From Candidatus Omnitrophota bacterium (GTDB lineage: Bacteria > Omnitrophota > Omnitrophia > Omnitrophales > Aquincolibacteriaceae), in assembly GCA_903884815.1 (NCBI GenBank), contig CAISGE010000071.1, forward strand, positions 1-62,825: 62,825 nucleotides of DNA. Reading direction: 5' to 3'. This document shows, one piece after another, positions 2,097 through 61,900 of the stretch (its first letter is position 1; every line of letters begins with the position of its first letter). The notes beneath the pieces are model-generated. The model searched no databases and had not been told where the DNA came from. It saw only the letters and a program-made list of their open reading frames with translations. The position numbers and the translations under genes were made by a program.

Positions 2097-3862
2097 ATCA
2101 CCCTCCAGAGCAAACATTGTTGGTCCTGATACACCTCAAGCAAATGTCCCTGAAGCTGGCGTTTGATCGCATCATAGAACGGGCTGGGCTTCGGCATCAA
2201 AATGTAATCCAGCCTGAAAACACGGAGCCTTTGCTCGATGGAAAGTCCCTTCCCAAGCGGAGCTTGATCCAACATCCCCAGCAGCAACCCCATAACAAAA
2301 TCCCTCCGATAGCCCTGCGCGGGACTCAAAGGGATCCCTCCGTTAATATAGAAAAAAGATTTCAGGCCTGTCTCAAGGAATAAATACTGACCGAAGCGGG
2401 AATCGGCCGTCGCAGTTAAAACCACCTCGTTTTTTTGCGCATGCCGCTTCAGCCATTGATACCCACCATCAAAAGGAAAATCCCGGTTATAAGAATAAAC
2501 AGGAAATTTCCAGTACCCCACGACAGCCACAAGGAGGATGATGCTCCAAAGAACTTCCTTCCGCAGGACGAACCTCTTCACGAGGTCAAACCTTTCCAAT
2601 ATCCAGAGGAAAAAGATCAGCACGAGAAAATACTGCGAGACATAAATAAAATAAATCTCGCTATTTAATGCAAAAATATTTTTCCTGGTGATCCCCGTAA
2701 AAAGAAGGAACGCTGCCGCCACGGACATGAAAACGACGCTGAATTTAGAAAAAAGACGCACTTCTTTTAAGGCGCAAAGTTTCTCATGGATCCATCCTGC
2801 CATCGAAAAGATCATGATGACCGAAAAGTAAAGTAAGTGGCTACGGATATCCGAAATCGCAGGCATAAAAATCGGCGGCACAAACGTGCAAACACCAAAA
2901 ACAAATAATCCAAAAAAGGACCACTCCAGAACCAGGCGGTCGAGGGCGGTCACGGACCTCTTTAAACGGCTGCAAAGGAACAGCACGACCCCCGCCACGC
3001 AAAGGGCCATAAGAACTGGTATCAAAAAATAAAAACCGGGGACCGGCATAAGCTTAGGGGGGTTGAGAACAACGAATTTTAAATTTTTTCCGAAAAAAGC
3101 ATACCCCGCATAAATAAGGCCTGACAGCAAGCAACTCCCCGTCGCGAATAAAGACAGCGCGGTTCTCCGGAACCTCTCCCCCCTTATCAGGGAAAAAACA
3201 TATTCAAGGCCCGTAACCCAAAGCCCGAAAACAGCATAAAAAGGCTGCAGCCATAATGTCAAAGCTGAAGCCAGCACGATCGCGACACGGTGTTTTTGAT
3301 TGTCCGGATCCCCCCTGAAGATTAGAGAAATCCAAAGAAAAAGGGGCGCGATCCCGTCCATCGGCCGTGAGAATCGCAGCAGGATCATCTGAATGCCGGG
3401 CCAGGGGCAGTAGAGCAGAAGCAAAAGAAGGAGCAAGGTCCCCGGGGCGCAAATATCCAATGGGTATTTCCAAAATTTCCAGCAGCAAAGCGTCAGGACA
3501 AGCCACATCAAAAGCGGCGTCAGAATTTGCCACACAGGGAAAAACCAGGAAAGCGGGATCTTCGTGTATTTAGATAGAAGTCCGATGATTTCTGCAGTGG
3601 TGAAAGGAATAACATGACGCAGCCCCTGCTCCTCATAATAAAAAGGATCGCCATCGCAGCGAGGCGTCATCATCCGACCTTTGGCGATACTCCAGTAATA
3701 AAGAGGGTCCCCGTCCGGCATCACATATCGCCAGGACTTTGAGGCCTGCGCCTCCCGCCCAAAATGGATAAAAAATCCCAAGGTAAAAATAAAGGCAGCG
3801 GCCAAAGCATAAATGACCCATGGGGAACTAAAAACGGATCTCGATTTAGTAAGATTTGTCAT
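2093..3862 (-). CDS. GT-C-superfamily-like membrane glycosyltransferase (STT3/PMT-like topology)
   Basis: Many TM helices; acidic DGDPLYY in the first external loop; C-terminal soluble domain GYQWLKRHAQKNEVVLT...LDYILM typical of GT-C C-termini. Confidence 0.6.
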   Translation of the reverse strand: MTNLTKSRSVFSSPWVIYALAAAFIFTLGFFIHFGREAQASKSWRYVMPDGDPLYYWSIAKGRMMTPRCDGDPFYYEEQGLRHVIPFTTAEIIGLLSKYTKIPLSWFFPVWQILTPLLMWLVLTLCCWKFWKYPLDICAPGTLLLLLLLLYCPWPGIQMILLRFSRPMDGIAPLFLWISLIFRGDPDNQKHRVAIVLASALTLWLQPFYAVFGLWVTGLEYVFSLIRGERFRRTALSLFATGSCLLSGLIYAGYAFFGKNLKFVVLNPPKLMPVPGFYFLIPVLMALCVAGVVLFLCSRLKRSVTALDRLVLEWSFFGLFVFGVCTFVPPIFMPAISDIRSHLLYFSVIMIFSMAGWIHEKLCALKEVRLFSKFSVVFMSVAAAFLLFTGITRKNIFALNSEIYFIYVSQYFLVLIFFLWILERFDLVKRFVLRKEVLWSIILLVAVVGYWKFPVYSYNRDFPFDGGYQWLKRHAQKNEVVLTATADSRFGQYLFLETGLKSFFYINGGIPLSPAQGYRRDFVMGLLLGMLDQAPLGKGLSIEQRLRVFRLDYILMPKPSPFYDAIKRQLQGHLLEVYQDQQCLLWRVM

Positions 3863-30106: not shown

Positions 30107-30844
30107 CTAATGGACTTTTCGTTTTCGCGACTGGAACACAATAAAAGCCGCGAAGATGATCGCGGCGCTGAGCCACTGATTCCCGGTCAGTCCCTGCCAA
30201 ACCCAACTAGGCTCGCGGAGAAATTCGATCAGATAGCGGCCAAACCCATAAAGAAGAAAATAAAGCAGAGCGATCTCGCCTTCAAAGCGGACCTTTTTCC
30301 GGCGCGCGATCAGAAAAGCGAAAAGAACGAGATCATAAAGCGCCTCATAAAGCTGGGTCGGATGCACCGGGTACGGGAGTTCCGGGAACCGCACGGCCCA
30401 GGGCAGATCACACGCCTTGCCGTAGCAGCATCCGTTCAGAAAACATCCGATCCTGCCAAACGCATGGGTCAGCACGCCATAAGGAATGAGGAAATCCAGG
30501 AGCTTCCAGAAGGGCCACTGCTTTTTACGAGACATCCTCAGGAGGCCCGCAAAAGCCGAGATCGCGCCGCCATAGAAGATCAGCCCACCTTCCCACACAG
30601 CAAAGATCTTGAGGGGCTCCCTGCCATAATAGGAAAGATTCTGGAGAACATAAAAAAGCCGCGCGCCGGCGAATCCCCAGACCAGCACCGTGAAGGCCAT
30701 GTCAAACACGCCGTCACCCGTAGGAAATCCGGTTTTGAGCGCACGCTGCTTCATGAGATGAATAGCCAGAAGCACTCCGAGGGCGATCGACAGTCCGTAG
30801 GAATAGAGATGGAGCGAGCCGAAGGAAAAAAGGATGGGTCTCAT
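30107..30844 (-). CDS. lgt: Prolipoprotein diacylglyceryl transferase
   Basis: GARLFYV, WEGGL.FYGG, GRIGCFLNGCCYG, HPTQLYE, RYLIEFLR. Confidence 0.95.
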   Translation of the reverse strand: MRPILFSFGSLHLYSYGLSIALGVLLAIHLMKQRALKTGFPTGDGVFDMAFTVLVWGFAGARLFYVLQNLSYYGREPLKIFAVWEGGLIFYGGAISAFAGLLRMSRKKQWPFWKLLDFLIPYGVLTHAFGRIGCFLNGCCYGKACDLPWAVRFPELPYPVHPTQLYEALYDLVLFAFLIARRKKVRFEGEIALLYFLLYGFGRYLIEFLREPSWVWQGLTGNQWLSAAIIFAAFIVFQSRKRKVH

Positions 30845-31467
30845 TTTTTGTCCTGGCCTCTGTTTTTTTCTGAAAAAAGGTTGCCAGGACTATCCTGACT
30901 TTTCTTTTCTTTTCCTTTATGGTAGTCAGGATTGCCCCAATTTCCATGCTGTGGAAATTGATTGGCATTGGGACTAGTCCAATTAGCCTTTAAATTTTTT
31001 GATGGAGAATTGGGCTTGTCCTTGGACATCAGAACACGGATAAAGTAAAGGCTGACCCCGATCGTGATCGCGGCATCGGCAATATTAAAGACCGGCCATA
31101 CCCGGAAATCGATAAAATCGATCACAGCGGCAAAGCGCAGCCGGTCGATCCAATTCCCCACCGCCCCTCCCAGAATCAGGCTGAGCGCCCAGCGATCGAC
31201 ATTGGAAGTCCCCGGAGAAGCTTTGGCGTGAGAACGGTTCGTGATCACAAAAAGGAACACGAGGCTGATCGTGATGACCGTAAAAAGTGCCGGCGCGTAG
31301 CCGCTGAAAAGGCCGAACGCGACGCCACGATTGCGAACCAGTGTCAGGTCCAAGACATCCGGGATGACGGAGACTGAAGCTTCGGAAGAAAGGTAGTGAA
31401 GGGCTAAAAACTTAGAAAGCTGGTCCAGAAGAACAAGGGACCCTACGAGACCGTAGAAGAAGATCAC
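30841..31467 (-). CDS. lspA: Lipoprotein signal peptidase II with a C-terminal extension derived from the palindromic element
   Basis: LDQLSK, NRGVAFG, GGAVGNWIDR, VIDF, VFNIAD; about 58 extra C-terminal residues. Confidence 0.95.
   Translation of the reverse strand: MIFFYGLVGSLVLLDQLSKFLALHYLSSEASVSVIPDVLDLTLVRNRGVAFGLFSGYAPALFTVITISLVFLFVITNRSHAKASPGTSNVDRWALSLILGGAVGNWIDRLRFAAVIDFIDFRVWPVFNIADAAITIGVSLYFIRVLMSKDKPNSPSKNLKANWTSPNANQFPQHGNWGNPDYHKGKEKKSQDSPGNLFSEKNRGQDKK
30848..31022. repeat. Palindromic coding repeat element, 4 x 42-bp units, at the 3' end of lspA
   Basis: Consecutive hairpins tcctggc..gccagga / tcctgact..agtcagga / caatttcca..tggaaattg / ccaatt..aattgg, joined by GGACTAGTCC-like junctions. 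Confidence 0.85.
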
Positions 31468-46991: not shown

Positions 46992-49900
46992 CTATGCCGC
47001 CTTTCGGATCTCGGAGCGGGCGACAAATTCCCTGGCCAACGCCATGAGGTTCTCGACGAGGAAGAAATTCAGCCCCATCTGCCTGACGCCCGGCAAATAC
47101 TCCGTCACAAACTTCAGCAGAAGTGCCTCGCGAGCGGCATCGTCCGGAACATTTCGCAGGAGACTCGCTAAATTCTTAAGAGCGATCCCCAGCGCCGTCA
47201 CGACCATCATATCCCCCGAGCGGACGCCGGGCGCACCGAACGCAAAGTGTATCCCCGTCTCAAGACCTTCGCTTGAATTCGCCGCGAGATGCAGGGTCGC
47301 AAACCCCGCCGCGTCTTTCCCGAGACCCACAGCATACTGATTGAGAACCTGATTTTCCGTCTGGCCTCCGGCCGGTTCAATCACTTTGAGGATCTCTCCC
47401 TGTTTGATCGCCTCCAGGATCGCCGTCCGGACCTCGAATTCAGAAGGAGCCACGACACCTTCGGACATAAGACCGCGTTCAATATCCCGGATCAGTGCGT
47501 CCCTCGACCCCACCACGACAAGCGGGGCATCGCCGGACCCGGACGAAGCCTTCAACAGAGCATAGAGGGCCTTCTTTCCTTCCCTATTCATGAGATACGC
47601 CTTAACCATATCGCCGCCAATCGCGAGCGTCCCCTGCGCTTGGGAAACAGTCGTCACAGATTCTGCCACGCCGCTGGGAATCTTGAAGACACCGTTCTCG
47701 GCCGTGAGGTTACCGTCACCCGGCAGAAGCGTCCCAAGAACATCGTTCGGCTCTCCAGCCTCTTCAGCCGCATGGACCACAGGAACTCCGGCGATCTGGT
47801 TGATGACATCGGCAACGCCAGCAGTTCCCAGCGAGGCCTCGACCTGTTCCACCTTATTCATGGCGAGCAGACCAAAACAGAGCTCCTTGTAGAACACACG
47901 AAGGGATTCGATCTGCTCGGGTGTCAGGATCACACGGTCCCCTTTAAAACTCATCCGCTCCTGCGGCCAATGCGGGACACTCGGCGCATAATACCCCGCC
48001 CCGATCAATTGGGTGTGTCCGATCCGAGACGGAGGACTCTGATGAAATCTCATTTCCGCCCGGTTGGCTGTCTCTTCAGAGCGAGCCTCGCCGAGCTCCC
48101 TATAGGCCCGGACCAAGCGGGGATTTCTATGTAACAGTCCCAATACGGGTTTCAGCTTCACGTTGATCCAGGGCAAGCTACCATCGGTATGGCCCTCGGA
48201 AATAGCGATCTCCCCAAGAATGGCCGATGTCCAGCGCTGAGCGTCTCTTCTTGTCCCAACCTCAAGATTGGAGAGAATGAACACGAAGAACGGCTTAAGC
48301 GCCCGGGCGACGAGCTCGGGGCCGTTTTGAAAGTGAGAAGATCCGACGGTCGCAAAGATCCGCTCCTTCTTCCCCAAGTTATAAAGATCGATCCTCCCGA
48401 CAGCGTGAGTCCCGCCCATCGATCCGATCTTGTCCACCACCTTCCTGTTCCACCAGTCTGTCACAGCTATATCAAAATCCTGGGCCGCTTCATCCGTCAG
48501 ATTCCCGAGATCATCCAGCACGGCATTTTGCGCGGGGGCAAAAGCGCGTTTTTCCGCTCGCCCCAAATCTTCCCCTTCCGGTTCCGCCACGCTCCTTGCG
48601 AGGACTCGGTGAGCCGCATGCTGTATTTCCAAATCGAGATCCGTCTGCGCCAATAACTCATGAATCGCAGGGAGCGCCCGATCCCCAAGCTTGATCAGTT
48701 CCTCCACCGCGTCATCACGCGTAACGTCGTTTTTCAAAGCTTCGACCCAATAGCCCACGGGATGCCGCAGAATAAAGATGTTCATCACAATATTTCCAAA
48801 TATCTTGAAAGCCACAAAACCCAAGCCGATGATGCCTAGGATCAGCATTCCCAAATTCTCGGTTTTATGATAATTCCAGAAATCACTGAAGGAGGTCACC
48901 CGCAGAACCTCCAGCGTTTTCATCGCACGGGTCCTGAGTTCCCTGTCGGGGGATGTCAGATGACGTCTCGCGAATTCCGGCGCACCCGGCACCTCCGCCG
49001 CTGCAGCGATGTTGCCCTGGATCAGAAACGAATAGAACTGTGCCTCCGGATTCTCGAGTTGTCCGAGGAGATCCCCGGTGGCCTCCATGAGGATGTGACC
49101 GCCCATATTCTTGGGCCTGTGGCCGAACTCCTGCCTGAGCGCGAAATACTGTGTGATCGCGATGGGGGCCACCTCACCGGACATCCCGATTAGCGCGTCC
49201 TTGATCTTCTCCCTTAAACTCCCCCCCGAATCGTACATGTCCGTCCAAGCCGTAAAGAGCACTTGGGCCGACGCGGCGTTTTTTATCTTTCCGAGATCTT
49301 CAACGGCCTTTGTTTTCGCTTCCAGCGGCGCTTTATCGTTCGCGAGCACCACCGCCGGATCGTACGCCAAATTTGTCATCCCCGTTGTTGTTACCGCCAT
49401 CCCTCGGGACTTCCCAACCGGCCGCTCAAACTGCTGGATAAAAGTCCCTCCCGGAAGCTCGGCCGCACGCCGGGTCTCAACCGGTTTTGTAAAAGCAATT
49501 GCAGATGTCACAGACATCAGCCCGGCGAGCACTACGACAGGAAATCGGACTTCGGAACGGTCAAGGGGCTTGGAGCTAGCTTCGCGTGCGGCCGCAGCCT
49601 CCGCAATTTTTTGGGCCACCAAAGTTTCGACCTGTGCTCGCGAAAGTCCGGTTTCGGTCATGATGTATTGGATGGTCGTTTCGCTCAGGGGCAAATAAAA
49701 CCGCGCCGCCGTCCCCTCTCGCAAACGCACCTCAATCGGTCCGGGGATGATTTCCGTGCTCCGCCCTTCGGAACGTTTGGTTATAGACCCACTAAGTTCT
49801 AAAAGAAGCGCATATAGCGCGTCATCAGCCCGGAGATATTGTTCCTCGATCGCGGCCATGCGGTTTAAAGCTTCCGGAATATCGTCTTGCTTCAATGCGG

Positions 49901-52900
49901 CACGAACGGAAACAAGCTCGGGAACACGGTCACCAATCTCCCTCATGATCGTTTCGGCGTCACGCGTTTCCGCCCGGGTCATCCAGAAGGGAATTTCAGC
50001 AGCGATTTCTTGCGATGTGCTCGATTCATAATTCCTGACCTTCCGGAGCAAAGGCCTTACGAGATAATCATCCAAATACTGGACCTCGCCGTAAACCTCA
50101 GGTTTTCCTTTCAAAAATTTTTCTAAGCCAATAACCCCGGCAACCCGGACAATGGCCTTTGCAATTTTCCATTTGGTAGCAGGATCCAGGTGGACGTAAT
50201 TTGTCCCATCGCGCGGCAACACAAATAACACCTGTTGTATTTGCCGCTTCTCGGCCAATTGATTGACCAATACCCGGACCCGCGCTTCGGCGCGCCCTTG
50301 GAGTTCGCGATTTCCGATCCATTCTTCCCAACCGGCACGCACTCCTGCCAAGTGATAAGCAATCATTCGGGCTTCGCCGGTCGTGCGTATCACCTGTGGA
50401 AAAAAATGATCCCTAAAAGCCCCCCCGATCACTTCCACGGCCCCGGCAAAAATATAGACCCCAAAGGCAGGCAGGCCGATGCTAGAAACATAAAGGCAAA
50501 GAATGACCATCATGAAAAATCCCTGGGATGCCACTTCGGGATGGGCCCTGCCCATTTGGACCTGAGCGAACCACGCGCCGGCTGCGGCCGCCGCAAGAAC
50601 AAGTACCGGCTTGATAAAGGGAGCCGCCGCTACACTAAGTTTCCCCATAAAAATACCCGTCACCTTCGTCGCCATCCAGACACGCTCACCGAAGGAAGGA
50701 CTGCGAACTTCGGCACGAGGCTCGAATTTGCTGGTGACCGCCATGGTGCCCAAAACAGAGTCGTTCTCCGGAACTTTAATCATATCGAAAATACCGGCGC
50801 CCGTGGTGGGCTGGATACTCGCGACACCTTCGATGCCTGCTATCCCAATGGGCACCCATGCCGTCCTGCTCCCAAAAAGTTCGTCTTGCGTAACGCTCAG
50901 GATCTCTCCCGTTTTTTTATTATAGAAATACGCTGTAGAATTCCCGTCCGCGCCGAAGGTCAATCCCGTATAAAGCTGTTCGATGTATTGCTTAAGAGGA
51001 AGGCCCTGACTCAGGTCCTCGGAGGTGCCCGCAACATCCACGGTCTCAACGGTGGGCGCGTTCATCCCGTCGCTTGTCACAAGCCGGCGCTTTGAGGCTT
51101 CGGAAAAAACTTCCCAGTCCTGGATATTTTCAAGCAGGAAGAAGAAATGGAGACCGAAATTCAGAAAGATCGGATAAGGATTGTTATTGATGATCTTGAT
51201 CTCGGGAGTCACGCCCGAATCCCCAAGCTTATACGTAAGGATCAATTCGGCATCGCCTAAATGAAAATCTTCGGCCAGCAATTCCGGATAGTCTTTCGTC
51301 TTCAAATGGAAGGAGATCTGCGGAACCCCGTCGACGATCCGGATATCCGTGGCTTCGTCCGTCGTCCACTTCATCCGGGCAAAATAGCCGTGCAGTCCGT
51401 ATTCCTTATTCGGTCCGATCGGCCGCGTCAGCTTCGATCCGGTATCGATCTTGTAAGTCTTCCCCCGCGCTTCAAACTGAGCCGGACCGCGAGTGGTCCA
51501 GGGGCCCATCACCGCGGAGCCGCCACCGAAAGGAGCTCCCTCCGCGTCCAAAAGCTTTTCGCCCTTGCCTTTATGCCATATCCTCTGAACCCTGCTTCCA
51601 TCAGGTTGCTTCATCAAAAGCGAAATAAGATTCGCTCCGAGAGTTGTCGCCTCAGCTTCATGCCCCGCCGCGTTCGAGAGAAAATAAACAGGATGGCCGT
51701 CGATCATGACTCGATCCACACGGCTGCCGCTGTCGTCGGAAATCACCGTCTCCATCCCTTCAAAGAGGGAATCCTCTTCTCTACCAGTGAATCCCTTAGA
51801 TTTAGCGCCAAAGCGCCGAGCCACAGGCGGGATCCGACGGCCGTCGTCATCTACGACTTGCCGGATCCGGATCACGGGGATGATACTCCCCCCCGAAATT
51901 TTTGATTTAAAAGTCCCGGCCTCAAAAACCTGGAACCGGCTCGGTTTCGCGTCGCTCAAATGGCTGTTGATCATGGCCTCGATATCGGCAGGGACCGCCT
52001 GTCCAAAAAGGTTTATGCTCCTCTCGTCCGGGATCAGAGCAAGATCACGCAAGTCGTCGTCCTCCACTTCCACGGTCCGACTGAAACGCCGGATCCCGGC
52101 ATAGCCATCGATCTCGATAAGGACCTTTCTTGGCTCTAAGTCACTAAACTCTGCCCGTTGCACCGCCTGCAGAGCGATCTGGAGGGCCGCGGCATAAACG
52201 CTTTGTTTCGTCAAGTCCCGGGATTCGGAGCGAAACCTCTTCGCCAATTCCCCGGACCTCTTGGAAAAAGCCATGATATTTTTCTCCAATTGGTCTAGAT
52301 AGGCATCGAGGCCTCCCATCCTGTCTATGACGTGCCCGGCGATATTCAAGTCGCAACTCGTGGCGACAATAAAACCCCGTGTTCCCATGTCTCTAAAAAG
52401 CTTCTCGACTGCAGCAATCACCGCGGCTTCATCCTTCTCCGCCAATTCGCTTCCCGCTTCGGTATTGAGGTTTCCCATCAGGACGGGCCGCCTCGGCTCA
52501 CCGGCATGGATTGCTTCCAGATAATCATAGATTTCCGCGAGGTTCTCATAGACAGCATCGATGCTCAAAATGTCGAGGCCTTTGATTTTAGTGAACCGTT
52601 CCATGATTTGCTGATTCATGTCGCGGTCATGGCCGGGGCAGCACGGATGATAGCCGGACAAAGCGCCGAGGCCATGGAGCAACTCGGACAATCTGCCGAC
52701 AGGATCCACGCCGTACTTCTCGTAGGCGTCAAGATCGAATAATTTATTGTGAGCCAGTCCCGTTGCCGTCGGTTCCAGGTAGACAATGCCGTCCACATGC
52801 CCCTCCTTGACAAGATATTCCGACACCGCCGCGACGACATCCTCGGCGTATTTCATGACTTTCTGGAATTTGACAAAATCCTCGTCATGTTGATCTTCTT

Positions 52901-55900
52901 TTCCGTTGTACAATCCCATCGACATTTCATTGGAATCCATCAGCATCACGGCCAGAGACATCGGCGCGATCACTTTCGCGATGCGGGGTTCGCCGGGGCG
53001 TTGATCTTTCATGTCACTGAAAAATTCGGCAAGAGCTTTGATCCTGCCGTGTTCGAGCACGTCTTTGGCAGGAGCCAGATTATCCAGATCCGTAATGCCC
53101 GCTTGATCCAGGTAAAGAAGTTGGGAAGGGGCCAGGCTCAAGTCATCGTTGAATTCGGGCCGGAGATCCTTCTTGCCGTTGGCTTTCAAAATGGCTTCGT
53201 GGAGCATGTAAATGTCCATATTGCCCATCACGACTTCCATGCCGAAGTGGTCCGTGACCCAGTTGCGCATTTTGGCGTGGGCCTTCGGATCGGTGGCCAC
53301 CTGCTCAATCGTGAGTTTCTCTTTCGGATGGTGCTTGTTGTAGAGTGCCAGCGCTGCGTACCCGAAAATCGGCGAAAAAGCCCGTGTGTCCTTGAGATGG
53401 TCGAGCACCTCCCGCCGCAGAGCCAATAACTCCGCCTCATGCGAAAGCGCGGAGGTCCTTGTTTCTGACCGATGGAGACGGGAATCGGCCCATCCATGAA
53501 CCTTTCCTTCCGAGGCCTCTTCAGCCAGGACATCCTGGACCAATCGCGGGTATTGGCTCTGGATCTTAGAAACAAAATCACTGAAAGGAATCCCGGCCCG
53601 ACCCGCCTCGACCTCCATCCCCTCGATCACCTTAAGAGCCAGTTGGCTTTTCTTGGAAAAAGAATCGATCTCGGCGATTTCTTCGGTCGCTCTCCGGATC
53701 GCACTCCGGAAAAAATACGGCACGATCAGGAATGACAGGGCAAAAACAGCGCCCGCGGCGATCAGCAGACCGGAGGTCCACGCAGCCAAACCTCCGAATG
53801 TCACCGCGACCGCGCCGAGGCTCAAAACGATCGTGGTCACGACTCCCCATTTGCGTACCTTTGGCAACAAATGTTCCTGTCTGAATTTTTGTGTGCGAAA
53901 TACGTCCCGATGGGCTGCGGAGGTCTCCGCCAAATGCTCTCTCACCTCATCGAGACTAGAAACTCCGGCACGGACGACCTCGCGTGTGAGACCCCAGACC
54001 TCAGCATCATCAATGATCGCCAGGCGTTCCAACACCATGACCGCAAGTTCCGCGGCCGTTCTCGTCTCAGCCCGGCCAGAAGCAAGTGACCAATCATTGA
54101 GGTCATCGGAATACCAATCCAATCCCCGGGATTCCAAGAGAAAACGTACCGCCAGATTATCTCGCGCGGCTACTTTTAACACAAACTGCGCGGCCGCACG
54201 TAACAAGGGTTTAATGTTGCCAATCGCTTCCGCGAGCAACGCAGGAGCTGCTCCATACCCGATCTGGCTTAGCGCGGCAATGGTCAACAGCTGAAGAGAC
54301 AGATTTTCATCTTTCAACAGAAGAGGCGGATTTTCATCTTTCAACTGAAGAGGCAGATTTTCATCTTTCAACGCCTGGACCAGAAAAGGAATGGCGCTAT
54401 CGTCTCCGTAACGAAACGCTTTTAAAGCTTTCACGCGACGCGATAGGGCTCTCTTCGGCGACAGGGAATCCAATAATCCCGGTTGCATGGCCCCGATCGC
54501 TTTCATGACCCGGAAATACTGACGCAAAAAACCGCCGAAAAAGAATTTTCGGGCGGAGGGAATAGTGATGCCGCCTATGGCGAATGCAGCAAGGAGGATT
54601 GCGAACGTCAGACCTGGATTGGGAGTGACGAGCGCGGCGCCAAGCACGATCCCGGCAACGGTCCAACCGGCGAGCTTCTTGAAAAATCTCTGACGGTCAG
54701 CACGATCCACCTGCTCTTGAAACGCCCCGTGAACCAGGTCATAAACTGCGCCCTGAAACAGATGTATTGAGGCATAAGAAAACCGATCCCTGCTTTCTTT
54801 GGAAGCCTGCGCAAACGCGACCGCAAGCCCATGCCACTCTTTTTCCGCGGCACGGCGCGTTGCCTTGTCCACATCAGGAGCATCCATCACTTTGCGATAA
54901 TCCTGATAAGCAGCGACGACTAACGTCACGGCTTCCGCCGCGGAACGGTTGTCTCCTGCGCTTAAAAGTTCCGCCATACGCACGGCGGCGCTTTGCTGAT
55001 CCCGTGATTCCGAACGCCCGTACTTGTCGCGGATAGCCTTCGCAATAGTTTCATAACCTGGAGGGATTTCGCGCGTTTGGACGTGCACGCGATCGGCTTC
55101 TCGGACTTTCGCGAGGATCTCCAGCTTCGTGGCCCTCGTCCCGTTTAACCCTTCAAAAAAAGTCGATTTGCCAAGCCCCTTCTCAAGCGCTTTCAGAAAA
55201 GCGTAATAGTGTTCCTTCCGGGCTTCCGGGATCTTACTCACGACAGCCATCCAGACATCCTGGATCTTTTTAAGTTTCTTTTGATCGATCCTGTTGCCCT
55301 GCATGGCCAACCGCTGAAGGGAGCCAACAAACTTGGCCGGTGCCTGGGCCGCGACCGGAACAACTCTCCGCGCACCCGGGCGAACAGGTTGCGGCGCCGT
55401 ATTGGCAGCGGAAACTGACGGAGCCACAGCAGATACCTGGACAGGCGACGGGATTACGGGGCGAACCACCCCCAAAGTGGACTTCGGCGAGCTTGATGCC
55501 TTTTTAACTTCCGGGTCCTCATCCCCCCAGAGGTAGTACTTTAAATTATCCGTCCAATACTGATGCAGAGACTGTTCTTTGTCTGACATCCGGGAAGCGG
55601 GCGCCACAGACACTCTGGAAGCCGCCATCCGGGGAGCGAGTGCCGCCGATCCTCTGACATCTGCCATCCGGACTCCCGGTGCTCCCGCAGGCCGCGGGAC
55701 AGGATTCCTGTTCGGAACAACCGGTGTCGCAGTCTGCGCCTGAACAACCGGCGGTGCCGCCTGCGCAAAGGGAGGTCTGACAGCCTCCGCGGAAAAAGCG
55801 GCGCTTTGCGTTACGGGCGGTTGAACCGGAACCTCATGGGTAACAGCTACTTTCACCGGCTCTAGTTCGATCATGGATCTATCAACTATCGAGGCGATCT

Positions 55901-58900
55901 CCCGGTACCGACGTATCCTGAGCCGGACCTGCTGGTTGGGATCCAAACTCCACTTGTGATCCCGGGAAAGCGCCTCAAAAAATCCGGCAACCCACTCCGC
56001 GGGATCTTGGGAAAACGAAGCGCCCATCCGAGCCCAAAGGATCTTGTCTGCAGCGGGGCTCATGGCAAATGCGTTGACCTCCGGGTTCTGCCGCTGCCAC
56101 ACTTCCAGCCAGTCAGCGAGCCTTTCCATCAAATCTCCAAAACGATAAAATCCCTGGTATTCCTCGGGCGATCCCAGTTTCGTGAGCGCAGATTTATCCT
56201 GAAGCTCCACCCGCGTTTCATTGCGGCGATTTGTACCGGGGTTATCGTCATTCGGTGAAGGACGATCAAGAGCATCTGGGCCTTGTTCCCCGTGATGGAT
56301 CAATTCCTGCAGAGATTCCCACACGTGGGCGTAACTCGGATCATGCTCGATATCCTCCGGCCCGAATGCGCGCCACAGCGGGTAGAAAAGCGCCACGAAG
56401 GGCACGAGAATGAGCGTGCCAAAGAGCCCGGCAATGCCCCCCACAAGCACATCGAAAAGACCTTCCTGAGCCTGCCGGTATAGGTACCAGGAAAGAGCAA
56501 AGGTCCCTTTCACCGCGGCCTTCCATCCCTCAACAAACGGCTGGCGCGCCTCGGCGCGGGGGTTGGCAAGCGCTTCGAGGACGGCCTGCTTTGCATCCGT
56601 GAAAAAGGTGGAAAAATCGACAGGCCCCCCGTCATCGGAAGGAGCCAATCGAGCCTGCACATCCATCCAGGGAAACCGCACAGACGGCGAAAGGGAATCG
56701 AAATCCACGGCTGCCGTGATCTCTTCCGCGAGTCTCTCTGCGTCGAGCCCCGAGCCTTCGATAAGCGCAGCCGCGAACCCGTCTGCGCTAAGCTCCTGTT
56801 CTTGTTCTGCATCTTGTGTATCCATCGCCGCATCGTCCGCAGGAAGTTCCAAAATCGGAGAACCGGAAAGAGGAACATAGAACTGGAAGAAACTGCCGGT
56901 TTTGCCCCGGATGGTCAAAGAATTGAGGAAATATCCCGGGACGCGGATACCTTGGTTCCTAAGAGCCGCGATGCTCTGGGGGCGTGGCTGGACGAATTCC
57001 TTAGCCATCACGGATTTCAGAGCCGCTCCGAGGACGCCCGCGATAGGCCCCTGCAATTGATCGCCCGTCAGGATCTGCACGGCCAGCGGGCGGTCTTTGT
57101 CTGACCGGAATCGACGCATAAGCATATCTCTCAAAAATTCCCCGAAAAGCTTCTTTTTCCGCGAGCTTGAAAGAATCTCTTCCGCGCGATTGAGAAGCCC
57201 TGCGACGGTATCCCCTTCCCCTCTACCGATGGCGCTCTCGATATCGTCCTCCAGAAGAAGCAGTTCTCTGAGCACGTCTAGCTCCCCCGATTTGTAGGTG
57301 AAGGACTGAGTGTAGGGAAAAACATTCTCCAGGATCTGGCGAACTGTTTTTTCGATATCCGGACTTCCCCGCACCAGGACGGTTTCGCGGGGCAAGTCCC
57401 TGCCTTGGCCTGCCACGGTAGGTCCGGTCACTGCGGCATCCACTTCAACCTTCAGATTCTCTTGATCGGCCGAGATCTGTTGGATCGAAAGCCTGACCGC
57501 CAATTTATCACCGGACGGACTGACGCATTCGATGACCACAGATTCCGTGCGCACTTTCACCTGCTGCTGACGCACGACAGGTTTTCCAGGTCTCTTAACT
57601 TCAACTAGTTGGCCATCTTCCCCCCGGGTGTAATTGGCCGGCCGGAGATCCTGGATCTCCTGAATAGCGGGAACTTCTTTGATCTGATGGAGCACAATAT
57701 GTGGATTCCGGAGTTCCGGGGATTTCAGAATGCCTTTGGCGACGATCAACAGATTGTGATTCCGGATGCTCAGGGTCTCGAGCCAGCGCGCTACGGCGTG
57801 CCCGGCCGGGCCGAACCCGTCAGCAAAACGGTTCATAAAATCGTGGTGAGCATATACAGCGGGAGTGATCACCTTCCTGTAAAGGGGCAGTTTGGGCCGG
57901 TATCTTTTAAAGCCGTAATATAGGATCACACCCACGACGAGTGAAGCGAAACCGTAAGTTACGAGAACGATCGTCCACCGGGCGTATTGTGCCGACGGTT
58001 CCAGCCGCGCCGAGATGAACGCGTTAATCTTATACGCCGAAAAGAAAGGGGCCGCGGCAACAATAGCGATCCGTATGAGCCAATGGCCGGCCCATCTGAG
58101 GAGGACGAAAAGGTCCCTCACCAGCAGCCCGTGCGCCTTGAGCATCGTCACGAATCCGGGATTCCCTCCCCGGTCCTTCGTCCTCTTTTCCGCCCGGGTG
58201 CCAAAAAGCTTTGCGGGGTCGTCAGCGCCTTGAGTAAGATCTGATTTCCTCGCTTGGGAACGGCGTTTGAGAGAGAACGTCAGGGTTTTCGACATCCCAT
58301 CATCCTCATCCACGTAAGAATAACTGACAGCGATCGGAGCGCCATTGTCGTGAACTGCAGTCTCGTCGTGTTGAACGCCTTGTCCGAAGACCCAGATCAG
58401 TCCAGCGCCTGTATGTTTCGAGTCCATCGGGTTTGCCCATCGATCCGTGGGCATCGGAACTCGCTTGCCTGCCGGAACCTCTTCCTCGATCTTCTCTCCG
58501 CCTGGGAGCTTGATCATCAGAAGATTTTTTTTCGGATTGGCCGTCGCAAGGACCCCCGCGGTAGGACCCGAATCGCCGTATTTCAGATGGGCCAAAAGGC
58601 TGGGTTGTTTCGCCGCTTCCACAGCAAGTGGCACCTCGGAAGCCGGCTCAGAAACCTGACAGCTCACGAGCCCCAAAACTCCCGCCAGCATGATCGCCCC
58701 GAGGAAACCGCGAAGCTCGGCGCGGTTGGTTCTTTGCGTACCTGCAGGGACAAGTTCCAAGCCGCGGCGGTTGAACACACGCCCTAGCCCCCAAGTCGAC
58801 CTTTTTGCGACCTCCTCTTTGGTCATCACAAGACTACCTTTCAGTTGAGCAAGAGGCATTTCCCGGGTTGTAAAAGGGCCCCGAAGCTTGACAATATTGC

Positions 58901-61900
58901 CGCCGCCGGATATGAATCCCTCAAAGGTCCAAACGATTCCGTCGGATAATTTCACCTTATCCCCGGGTTGGGGCTGGATCGCCCTCCATGCCGTCGGTTG
59001 AGCCATAGGCTTCGCGCGGAGTTTGGGGCTGGCCGTGCTCATGGTATTCAGGTGACTCACTAGGGAATTAAAAAACTCAAAGGAGTCCGAGCCTTCATTC
59101 TGAACGATCCAGGCATCATGGAACTCACGGTAAAGACCGGCAGCAAAGGACGCGACGGCTCTGGGCTGGAACCCTCGGCTTTCCCAGAATTTCCGCGTTG
59201 CTAAGAGCGCGCTCTCGTTCCAGATCTGTTGAGGATCCGTTTGGGGGGTATATCCGGCAAGCATCGGTCTGAGGACCTTCAGCATATCTGCGGCCACTTC
59301 CCTCCGGTTCCTCATCTCCGCGCGGGTGATCGAGATTCTATCCTTACCATCAAGAGCAAGATCCACCTTATCCGGAGCGCCTGAAAAAACCGTGTCCTCA
59401 TCCAGGGTTCTTTGTCCATTAAAGGCCTTGCTGACCCTGTTGGCGAAGGGCACGATTGTTTGTTCCGAAGGCTTCCAGAAACTTCCGGGGATGGTGATCG
59501 CAACGACCTGACCGCTTGTTTTGGGGACAAAAAGAATTCCCTGAAGAACGGGTCTGCCGAGGTTGAATCCCAGCAGCCGGAAATGAGCCATCACAGCAAA
59601 TAATTCGTAGTTTATGCCGCTAACCTCTTTCCTGTTCAGAAACCAAGCCGCCCTTGTCACCTGCTCCGGAGTAGCGTTGATGCGGGTCAAACGCACTGAA
59701 GGGAAAGCCACCAAATAGGCCAGGTTCGCGGTGTCAGGCACCAGAGACGCCCACCACAAGGAACTCAAGTGATAGGAATCCTCGCCTAACGGCAGGTTGA
59801 GCCCCGCCTCGGTCGAGGTAGCATCAACGATCCTCTTCTTATGGATCCCTGCCCACCATGATCGCAGCTTGAAATTGGGATCTTTCCATGGCCCAAAAAA
59901 ACTGATGCCCGAAAAAATGACCCCCGTAAAAGCAGCCGCCACAAAAGGACTCGCGACAATCTCCAAACCCAGCGCGGCGGCTAAAACACCGGCTGCCGCG
60001 ACCACGGCGGTCATGAGCGCCAACCATGCGTCGGCCCGCGAAAAAAAAGACGCGAGAAATATCCCGAAAAAGATGACACCGGAAAGCGCGAGTGTCGCCG
60101 CGCCAACGGAAACAAGATTCAGAAAAAGCGAAGGGAAGAAAACCAGCGAGAATATACCGAGCGCCAGGGTCACTGCGGCAGAAATCGTGGTGAGCCTCTT
60201 CTCAAGGGCCTGGAAACGAAACGCTCTGTAGGCCTCTCGATAAGTCACGAACCCGGGATCATAACTGATTTGTTGAACTGTGGGAGCCTTTTGGAATGTC
60301 ACCCGTCTAACGCCTGAAGCCTTGCTGTAAATTGTAGCCCCATTGTCAGCCCACGATATAAGAAGGCCTTCCACGGAACGCCCTTCATCGGTCGTCCCAG
60401 CCACGTGGTACCAAACTCTCCGCTCCTCCTCCGCTGTCGCGGTTGGGACTGACTTGTAGTGATCCGCAGTAACCGCTGTCACCTCCACCCTCATCTCCGC
60501 ACGAGTTGTTATGTCATCGCTAACCTCGTCGAGTACCGCCGCTGGCCTTGCTGTGGGATACCGCTTCGGTACCAAGAGCGCGGCAAAAACGGTGACGACC
60601 AACGCCCCTAAGAGTGCTACATTCATGCCGAACCAAGTCGTGGAATGAAAGGGAGAGGTTACCGGATCGCCGAGTTCCAGCCGCGAGGTAAAATAGTGCC
60701 CGATCGGGAGAATAGCCCACGAGAGCATGGCCTGTTGCCAACCGGCCCCCAAAGACGCCCAATCGCGGACTCTCCATCCAAGATCCTTCCACATTGCACC
60801 AAAGGCGCGGCCCTCGGCGCGGCTCTTGAGCGTGTCGATCACGTTCTGCTTATATTGGTTGAAAAATTCCGCGGCGAATGCGGCGGGATCCAGGTCCCGG
60901 GATTTCGCCTCTTGAGCTAGCACATTCCTCCAACCCGGCATAATGTCGAAGGGCAGATCGTGAAAGGTGTCCGCTGCTTCAAGAACTTCCACGAGATAAT
61001 CCGGCCTTGCCTGCAGCGCCGTCATCAAACGACCCGCGAATCCCGCGATGTCTTCCGAGCCGATGCCTCCGTGTTTCAGTGTGTTTTGAACGCGCTCGCT
61101 TGACATGAACGGCCGGATCAATCTCGGCGTCAACGTGATCCCCTTTTCCGAACGAGTCCCGATCGGTTCGTCCATCAAATTTCCGGAACCGTCAATATTA
61201 TTAAAACACCTTCCGCTAAGCAATACCCCACCGCCTTTGTACGCGGTAAATCCGAGCGTCACGGAAGCCTGAGACTGCTCGGGATTCTGGATCACGACAT
61301 ATCTGAGAGCCGCGTGATGAGGAAGAACGGGAGAGGGCTGCTCTATCGTGATGAATTCAGGACGGATGCCCCATGACTGCTGGAGAAGGGTCTTAAGGTC
61401 CGCCGCCGCCTTGTTCAATTCCTGTGCCGGCGACCCCATCCATTCAAGGGGCGAGCTTGTGGAAGCACCCCGACCAGCACCCGTGGCTTGAGACTGGGGC
61501 AAAGAAGATACCCTCTTAACCGGTGAGAAAAATAAGCTAACCCACGTGCGAAGGGTCTTGCCCGGTTGTATCGTGACATCCATTGCTCCCGGAGGACCGG
61601 TTTGTGGTTCTAACCCGAGATAGTCCTTACCTTCCGGTGTCCAGAATGTTTGATTAAGGAAGACTTCGGGATCCGCAGCCATCAGGATCGAGTAATCAGA
61701 ACTATGAAGTATCCCGGAGGGTGTCCCGCTCGAAACCGGACGGGACTCATCCCATTGAGCGCCCTTAAGACCCTGTATGGAAAGCCACGACGGAGCCCCG
61801 GACCATTGATCACGGTTGGGCGTGTTGAAAACAAGATGCTCGCCGAAGCCGACCTTTTTCGCGATCGTTCCCGTATTCTCGATCTCATACTGGATCGCGA

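Follow-up and report, generated by a model that had tools for sequence, protein, structure and literature searches.

A lipoprotein-type signal directly after a recurrent joint motif inside a giant Omnitrophota protein

The stretch of DNA that we analyzed (the window, 62,825 nucleotides) is an entire contig (C71) of a metagenome-assembled Omnitrophota genome (G000; 2.87 Mb, 96.4% complete) whose minus strand encodes the C-terminal 5,277 codons of a giant protein. Deep inside this protein, directly after a copy of a recurrent motif, R[AST]ExR, that we call the joint, lies a segment with the hydrophobic region, lipobox and polar tether of a lipoprotein signal for the Sec pathway and signal peptidase II (SPII). 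The link between the motif and export signals is strong and replicates across genomes, both for lipoprotein signals and for signals resembling those of twin-arginine translocation (Tat). This pattern suggests that giant proteins of this kind may be cut into separately targeted pieces. We lean, with confidence a little better than even, toward the view that the segment is a working Sec/SPII signal of a cassette that a polyprotein-like giant would release through a cut at the joint or immediately ahead of it.

Results

A predicted lipoprotein signal at a cassette boundary

The cassette (58197-58724, minus strand, as are all its parts; 176 residues) begins exactly at a cassette boundary. Translation of the site reads ...RTN-RAELR-GFLGAIMLAGVLGLVS-C-QVSEPASEVPLAVEAAKQPS..., where the motif copy RAELR (58710-58724) is the joint directly before the signal. 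RAELR spans residues 1368-1372 of the window open reading frame (ORF), whose numbering is used here unless stated otherwise. It is followed by an uncharged hydrophobic (h-) region, GFLGAIMLAGVLGLVS (58662-58709, residues 1373-1388), with a Kyte-Doolittle mean of 1.96 over 19 residues, and by the lipobox LVSC (58659-58670, residues 1386-1389), whose Cys1389 is the predicted lipidated residue. Next come a polar tether rich in Pro, Glu, Ala and Ser, QVSEPASEVPLAVEAAKQPS (58599-58658), the remainder of the predicted mature lipoprotein module (C1389-T1543, 155 residues, 58197-58661), and a further motif copy, RAEKR (58182-58196), that closes the cassette. Lipoprotein signals of the PROSITE PS51257 type end in a lipobox, [LVI][ASTVI][GAS]C, in which the Cys is invariant, and are matured by Lgt, LspA and Lnt; in Sec/SPII signals, the lipobox is preceded by an uncharged h-region of about 7-22 residues. 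LVSC fits this pattern, and the h-region has 16 uncharged residues.

An earlier reading of this DNA from its letters alone (the sequence-only reading) had described the succession from RAELR through LVSC and the tether to RAEKR, and each element stands where it had been placed. The hydrophobic stretch in that description is present, at 16 residues instead of about 13. Its soluble domain of about 150 residues matches the 155-residue module, while a beta-rich character finds weak support in a single-sequence AlphaFold model with 8 strands and a mean predicted local distance difference test (pLDDT) score of 40.5, too poor for a fold search. The same reading had put the signal more than 1,350 residues inside the ORF, which holds as a lower bound: in the full-length giant protein of about 6,819 residues, Cys1389 is about residue 2,931. 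The signal is thus not at the N terminus of the encoded chain and would become N-terminal only if the chain were cut first.

A second motif-plus-signal arrangement occurs in the same ORF (49494-49559, minus strand), where RSEVR is followed by FPVVVLAGLMSVTSAIA-F, a stretch with a Sec-type look and an A-x-A.

Export signals follow the joint motif

The motif is concentrated in giant ORFs. In the 24 ORFs of this genome with at least 2,000 residues (135,224 residues in all), R[AST]ExR occurs 163 times, against 6.9 copies expected from composition. There are 14 copies in the 46 ORFs of 1,000-2,000 residues (61,556 residues) and 28 in 1,409 ORFs of 300-1,000 residues taken from all frames (633,891 residues). 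A set of 33 related giants from other Omnitrophota, found via a shared head (184,361 residues), holds 501 copies against 13.6 expected, with three of the 33 lacking any copy. The window ORF has 19, where about 0.3 would be expected at the genome-wide rate for giants. Across 671 sites, the flanks of the motif are linker-like, being rich in Pro, Ser, Thr and Ala; position x prefers Val, Met, Thr and Ala, and the residue after the motif prefers Thr, Ser and Gly. Matches to URO-D, aldose epimerase and HEAT are each confined to one motif-to-motif segment.

We call a lipobox motif-linked when an internal match lies 10-35 residues after a motif copy. Three of the 7 internal lipobox matches in this genome's motif-bearing giants follow a motif (at distances of 16, 24 and 26 residues), while 3.4% of positions qualify. 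Among the 33 related giants, the count is 5 of 9 (distances 22-35; binomial P = 1.6e-4), and a sixth case in that set, the lipobox of P0009, follows a degenerate RSEIG. When the two sets were pooled, 8 of 16 internal matches followed a motif at distances of 16-35 residues; permutations gave 1.10 such matches on average, and none of 20,000 reached 8. All 8 motif-linked lipoboxes run on into a polar or Pro-rich stretch (12-residue Kyte-Doolittle mean 0.04 to -1.89); 5 of the 8 matches that are not motif-linked continue as a hydrophobic helix (12-residue mean 0.11 to 1.22).

Tat-like signals are placed similarly, with 6 of 8 following a motif; in the other genomes alone the count is 5 of 7, which 2 of 20,000 permutations reached. 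Hydrophobic segments starting 5-15 residues after a motif number 36 in the other genomes (9.6 expected), and this genome has 14 that start within 0-15 residues (5.1 expected). A hydrophobic segment lies within the 20 residues after the motif at 70 of 673 sites. We regard it as confirmed that the observation is far from chance.

The codons used at the motif are biased. At 172 motif sites in the giants of this genome, window copies included, the first Arg is encoded by CGC in 56% of cases (23% background), Ser at the second position by TCC in 50% (23% background) and by AGY in 4% (32% background), Ala at the second position by GCC in 52% (31% background), and the final Arg by CGG in 43% (27% background). 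Common descent of the joints could explain this bias, as could a signal at the nucleic-acid level. The last copy in the window ORF, RSEIR (47004-47018), lies 3 residues before the stop codon. Relatives carry ...QSLIAKSA or ...RALIERAA at this place, and the copy is probably no joint but a match by chance within a conserved tail helix.

An orphan module and a family of small cassettes

Homology searches with the module came back empty, and we treat it as an orphan. A phmmer search of 1.84 billion representatives returned its own protein only, plus two repeat proteins at E = 2.4e-5. One of these, P0003, consists of SpaA-type repeats, and the other, P0004, of cupin repeats; the P0004 match is confined to 64 residues that lead up to and into the beginning of a cupin unit, 20 of them identical, and we do not count it as homology. 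Neither Pfam nor NCBIfam has a family for the module, ESM Atlas gave no usable match, and nothing credible emerged from a search of 60 related genomes, of which 19 belong to its genus, 17 to its family and 24 to its order. Four matches in these genomes, at E values of 0.002-0.01, all contained in-frame stops and were discarded.

A lipobox of this kind can be followed through five short Pro-rich cassettes that are 31-36% identical and each run from motif to motif. These lie in P0009 (about residues 1315-1429 of that protein), P0012 (1051-1150), P0017 (two copies, 2586-2699 and 3097-3210) and P0019 (1215-1322). Their layout, over 85-98 residues, is a motif, a lipoprotein signal, a Pro-rich stretch and the next motif. 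The sequence G-x-x-[AG]-C-A is invariant in all five, and the h-region is variable. If processed, these mini-cassettes would yield very small proline-rich lipoproteins.

In P0012, the internal lipoprotein cassette is followed by PAS, histidine-kinase ATPase, receiver and starch synthase domains, and in P0019 by Glu/Leu dehydrogenase and phosphoglucomutase. In both proteins, domains that are typically cytoplasmic thus share a chain with an exported head.

The giant gene and its assembly

The minus-strand frame at 46992-62825 is open for 5,277 codons and then runs off the contig end, which truncates the gene at its 5′ end. Its first 1,542 codons come from contig C50 and P0002, the latter a protein of 6,317 residues in a different assembly with 100% identity over the module. 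The full giant protein opens with a Sec-type signal of its own, its N terminus being on C50. Over 57600-59400, the DNA contigs that runs of three studies yielded agree letter for letter wherever they cover the region, and a run belonging to a study that carries no flag as a possible source spans 58096-59114 in one piece. Thus, the frame is not an assembly artefact. As the DNA contigs over 57600-59400 carry no variants, they say nothing about selection. No RNA runs are on record among the listed sequencing runs that contain the stretch.

At the contig edge (62421-62825, minus strand), the ORF consists of tandem units of about 45 residues (FNH..PSS...LDRKLESAREKL...), and the arrangement of the copies differs in P0002. 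The break in the assembly between C71 and C50 is probably due to this repeat. On its downstream side, the giant gene is followed by housekeeping genes for TyrRS, an ABC-2 transporter, ProC, a phosphorylase and IleRS, with no protease among them.

Maturation and export machinery

The window encodes Lgt, the prolipoprotein diacylglyceryl transferase (30134-30838, minus strand; PF01790, 227 bits), and LspA, which is SPII (31030-31440, minus strand; PF01252, 129 bits). A second, more divergent Lgt is encoded on contig C2 (61938-62612; PF01790, 123 bits) and Lnt on contig C34 (TIGR00546, 344 bits). The lipoprotein pathway looks to be in use, as the genome has 114 N-terminal matches to the lipoprotein pattern, counted without filtering, one of which has the same ...LLVSC lipobox ending. 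In the window, the Lgt and LspA genes lie close together, within 30134-31440 of the minus strand.

Neither TatC (PF00902) nor LolA (PF03548) was found in this 96.4%-complete genome. Since LolA was not found, sorting of a lipoprotein to the outer membrane cannot be argued. A giant ORF on contig C58 has a canonical-looking twin-arginine signal (SRRNFLK...) at its residue 6873, directly after RAETR; as TatC was not found, this Tat-like signal has no identified translocase here.

Conserved head and tail of the giant proteins

About 15 other ORFs of the genome share the first 600 or so residues of the giant protein (BLASTP E values from 5e-81 to 5e-05, the weakest over short stretches only), and this head also matches the 33 giants in other genomes. 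By eye, 11 paralogous heads and the focal one start with a Sec-type signal. Within the head, His96, Glu124, Arg554 and His582 are invariant in 12 paralogues. A model built from the paralogue alignment reached a pLDDT of 71.6, and five of its six best structural matches belong to the superfamily of TIKI, TraB-PrgY, erythromycin esterase and ChaN (VIA-align Z 7.6-8.8, a range that the tool calls common). The matches were to EreC (6xcq_A; Z 8.8, root-mean-square deviation 4.4, 168 residues aligned), 2rad (Z 8.4), 2qgm (Z 8.0), HopBA1 (5t09; Z 8.0) and ChaN (2g5g; Z 7.6), with BcR135 and BcR136 among these five. Foldseek against the PDB gave nothing at E ≤ 0.001 for the head, Pfam (for example, TraB_PrgY_gumN) and NCBIfam gave no match at E ≤ 1, and only two weak matches, both unrelated, came from a profile search of PDB sequences.

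The window protein ends in ...RKAA (KAA at 46995-47003). An [AS]A ending occurs in 15 of the 17 motif-bearing giants of the genome, compared with 15 of the remaining 1,462 ORFs that have at least 300 residues; of the two giants without it, one is a fragment truncated by a contig end and the other ends in SMA. The ends of P0005-P0035 were also inspected, and nearly all motif-bearing giants end in ...[AS]A. This ending may be a family-wide C-terminal recognition or degradation signal. The tag of the genome's transfer-messenger RNA ends in ...PFAA. A homologue search with the tail alone, which covered only proteins of 616-2,000 residues, found nothing, and the tail searched as a region of the whole ORF had no homologues. 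Since the C-terminal ends of the giants are alike, we attribute these empty searches to a word-index limit.

Discussion

We favor a model in which the giant chain would be cut at RAELR, or immediately ahead of it, on the side of the cytoplasm, leaving the cassette with an N-terminal signal of its own in which the motif arginines would be the only positive n-region. As no other Lys or Arg precedes the h-region, these arginines would probably stay with the signal. Sec would then export the cassette, Lgt would lipidate Cys1389, LspA would remove the signal, and Lnt may add a third acyl chain. The product, a small module of beta type, would be anchored by its lipid to the outer face of the cytoplasmic membrane or reside farther out, while the remaining cassettes of the same chain would stay cytoplasmic or become membrane proteins.

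We entertain a broader proposal more tentatively, with confidence short of even. In this proposal, Omnitrophota would make true cellular polyproteins, in which dozens of unrelated proteins, encoded by one stop-free message, are separated in the cytoplasm at R-[A/S]-E-x-R and each is routed separately, the cassette at 58197-58724 being one such product. The routes would be the cytoplasm, membrane insertion, Sec export and the lipoprotein pathway. Because the only protease-like domain that we found appears to be exported, separation by a cytoplasmic protease, or even at the ribosome, comes into consideration.

Several points weigh against the favored model. The support for cleavage and lipidation is drawn from sequence. 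Our lipobox and Tat patterns are simplified rules, and our topology maps are crude, being based on 19-residue Kyte-Doolittle windows and not on a trained predictor. The module has no homologues, among the representatives and related genomes searched, with which Cys1389 could be compared. Between RAELR and the h-region there is no Lys or Arg, so only the RAELR arginines could form a positive n-region, and if the chain were cut right behind the final Arg, the n-region would be uncharged. In this the cassette stands alone, since each of the other 7 motif-linked lipoprotein signals has a Lys or Arg of its own between motif and h-region. A first, strict test, which asked for an uncharged hydrophobic 10-mer starting no more than 8 residues after the motif, was not significant, with 10 positive sites out of 171 where the background rate was 5.0% (P = 0.60). 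Among the domains found, only the head is protease-like; it carries a Sec signal peptide itself and would thus be on the wrong side for a cytoplasmic cut, and its role in such a cut is doubtful. Finally, the full giant protein has, with its N-terminal signal and five more hydrophobic segments, six segments before the lipobox helix, and the signal could therefore act in an uncut chain.

The last point bears on what the sequence-only reading had concluded, namely that the signal can be understood only with a cut of the chain at RAELR or close to it, and that it thereby supports a polyprotein. The Lys and Arg counts flanking the six helices fit an alternating in/out path, so an uncut chain would place the lipobox helix with its N terminus in and its C terminus out, and for this protein the necessity of a cut falls away. 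The interpretation is thus supported in part, by the features of the signal, its place exactly at a cassette boundary, the replicated link between motif and export signals, and the invariant lipobox in a family of small cassettes. Without any prior cut, the segment could be an internal N-in/C-out signal-anchor of a polytopic giant, on which Lgt and LspA act in place and which LspA severs, much as host signal peptidase does at internal signals of flavivirus polyproteins; the motif arginines would then form its positive flank toward the cytoplasm, in keeping with the absence of further Lys or Arg ahead of the h-region. We consider this, the main rival, unlikely, as it fares less well in the other proteins. 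Across nine lipoprotein-type cases, the number of preceding segments is odd in 6 (threshold 1.6), and P0009, P0012 and P0019 have only an N-terminal signal peptide before the internal lipoprotein signal, with no 19-residue window of at least 1.2 between the two. For P0027, with its Tat-like signal at residue 3,070, the highest intervening window is 1.41 and includes charged residues. In these four proteins, the helix of an uncut chain would meet the membrane from the wrong side, and their predicted topology, above all that of P0009, P0012 and P0019, is what best argues for scission on the cytoplasmic side. Use in place also leaves the signal-peptide-like distance after the motif unexplained, and our literature search gave no documented case of Lgt and LspA using an internal lipobox.

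Alternatively, the signal could be a fossil: a former lipoprotein gene would have been fused into the giant, and the stretch would now be a mere transmembrane helix whose Cys is neither lipidated nor a point of cleavage. The cassettes do resemble captured genes, the module is an orphan that is absent from all 19 other same-genus genomes searched, and 8 of the 16 lipobox matches are not motif-linked, most of them plain helices. A disused lipobox should decay, yet it is invariant in the five homologous cassettes despite their low identity, and all 8 motif-linked cases retain a canonical lipobox followed by a polar tether; the association of motif and lipobox also replicates across genomes. We regard a fossil as somewhat less likely than use in place. 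Very improbable, in our judgment, is that a separate product arises with no cutting of the chain, through internal translation initiation or an internal transcript. In-frame GTG (residue 1350), TTG (residue 1356) and ATG (residue 1379) codons do lie near the signal, but there is no start codon between the motif and the h-region, and ATG1379 falls within the h-region, so that a product starting there would have just 10 residues ahead of the Cys. Inspection by eye showed no clear Shine-Dalgarno sequence, the 671 sites have no excess of Met immediately behind the motif, and re-initiation needs no conserved peptide joint.

Whether the giant proteins of Omnitrophota are single chains or cut pieces is a question that has been addressed before. 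The main texts of two papers describe the products of the giant genes as membrane-associated chains of several thousand residues that mix enzymes (West-Roberts et al. 2023, 10.1101/2023.11.21.568195; 10.64898/2026.06.07.730766). West-Roberts et al. propose post-translational cleavage into several products, state in their main text that the cleavage points are not known, and look to C39 and S8 domains (10.1101/2023.11.21.568195). The 2026 preprint, in its main text, downgrades internal signal-peptide calls as chunking artefacts (10.64898/2026.06.07.730766). Neither main text mentions the joint motif, lipoproteins, Tat or Tiki, and searches of the literature on the motif strings, on internal lipoprotein signals or lipoboxes in polyproteins, and on Velamenicoccus proteomics returned nothing relevant. 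An internal lipoprotein signal one signal-peptide length after a joint would offer a concrete and cheap handle on cleavage. If the polyprotein reading is true, the motif would be the cleavage map that the field describes as missing. Annotation pipelines in which internal signal-peptide calls are suppressed would, should the signal be in use, discard real information.

Compared with known systems, the segment has the same h-region, LVSC lipobox and polar tether as bacterial Sec/SPII signals, and the enzymes that act on such signals are encoded. It differs from them in lying about 2,930 residues into a chain, directly after a conserved joint. The actinobacterial Rieske protein has an internal Tat signal in a Sec-inserted, polytopic chain of three helices that is not cut. 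By analogy, it would be a precedent for an export signal acting inside an uncut chain, which favors use in place; it has a single Tat-dependent helix, no lipoprotein signal and no recurrent joint. In flavivirus polyproteins, host signal peptidase cuts at internal signal sequences, and the light-harvesting protein LHCPII of Euglena is made as polyprotein precursors with conserved decapeptide linkers. The Omnitrophota giants may be likened to both, in that a single frame would give many products, with short recurrent joints between them and internal export signals to route them individually. Unlike either, this is a cellular bacterial gene with R-[AS]-E-x-R joints and three export routes seemingly represented, as read here from sequence alone. 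If the signal is used, it would mean that bacteria have a polyprotein strategy with targeting cassette by cassette, which has so far been typical of viruses.

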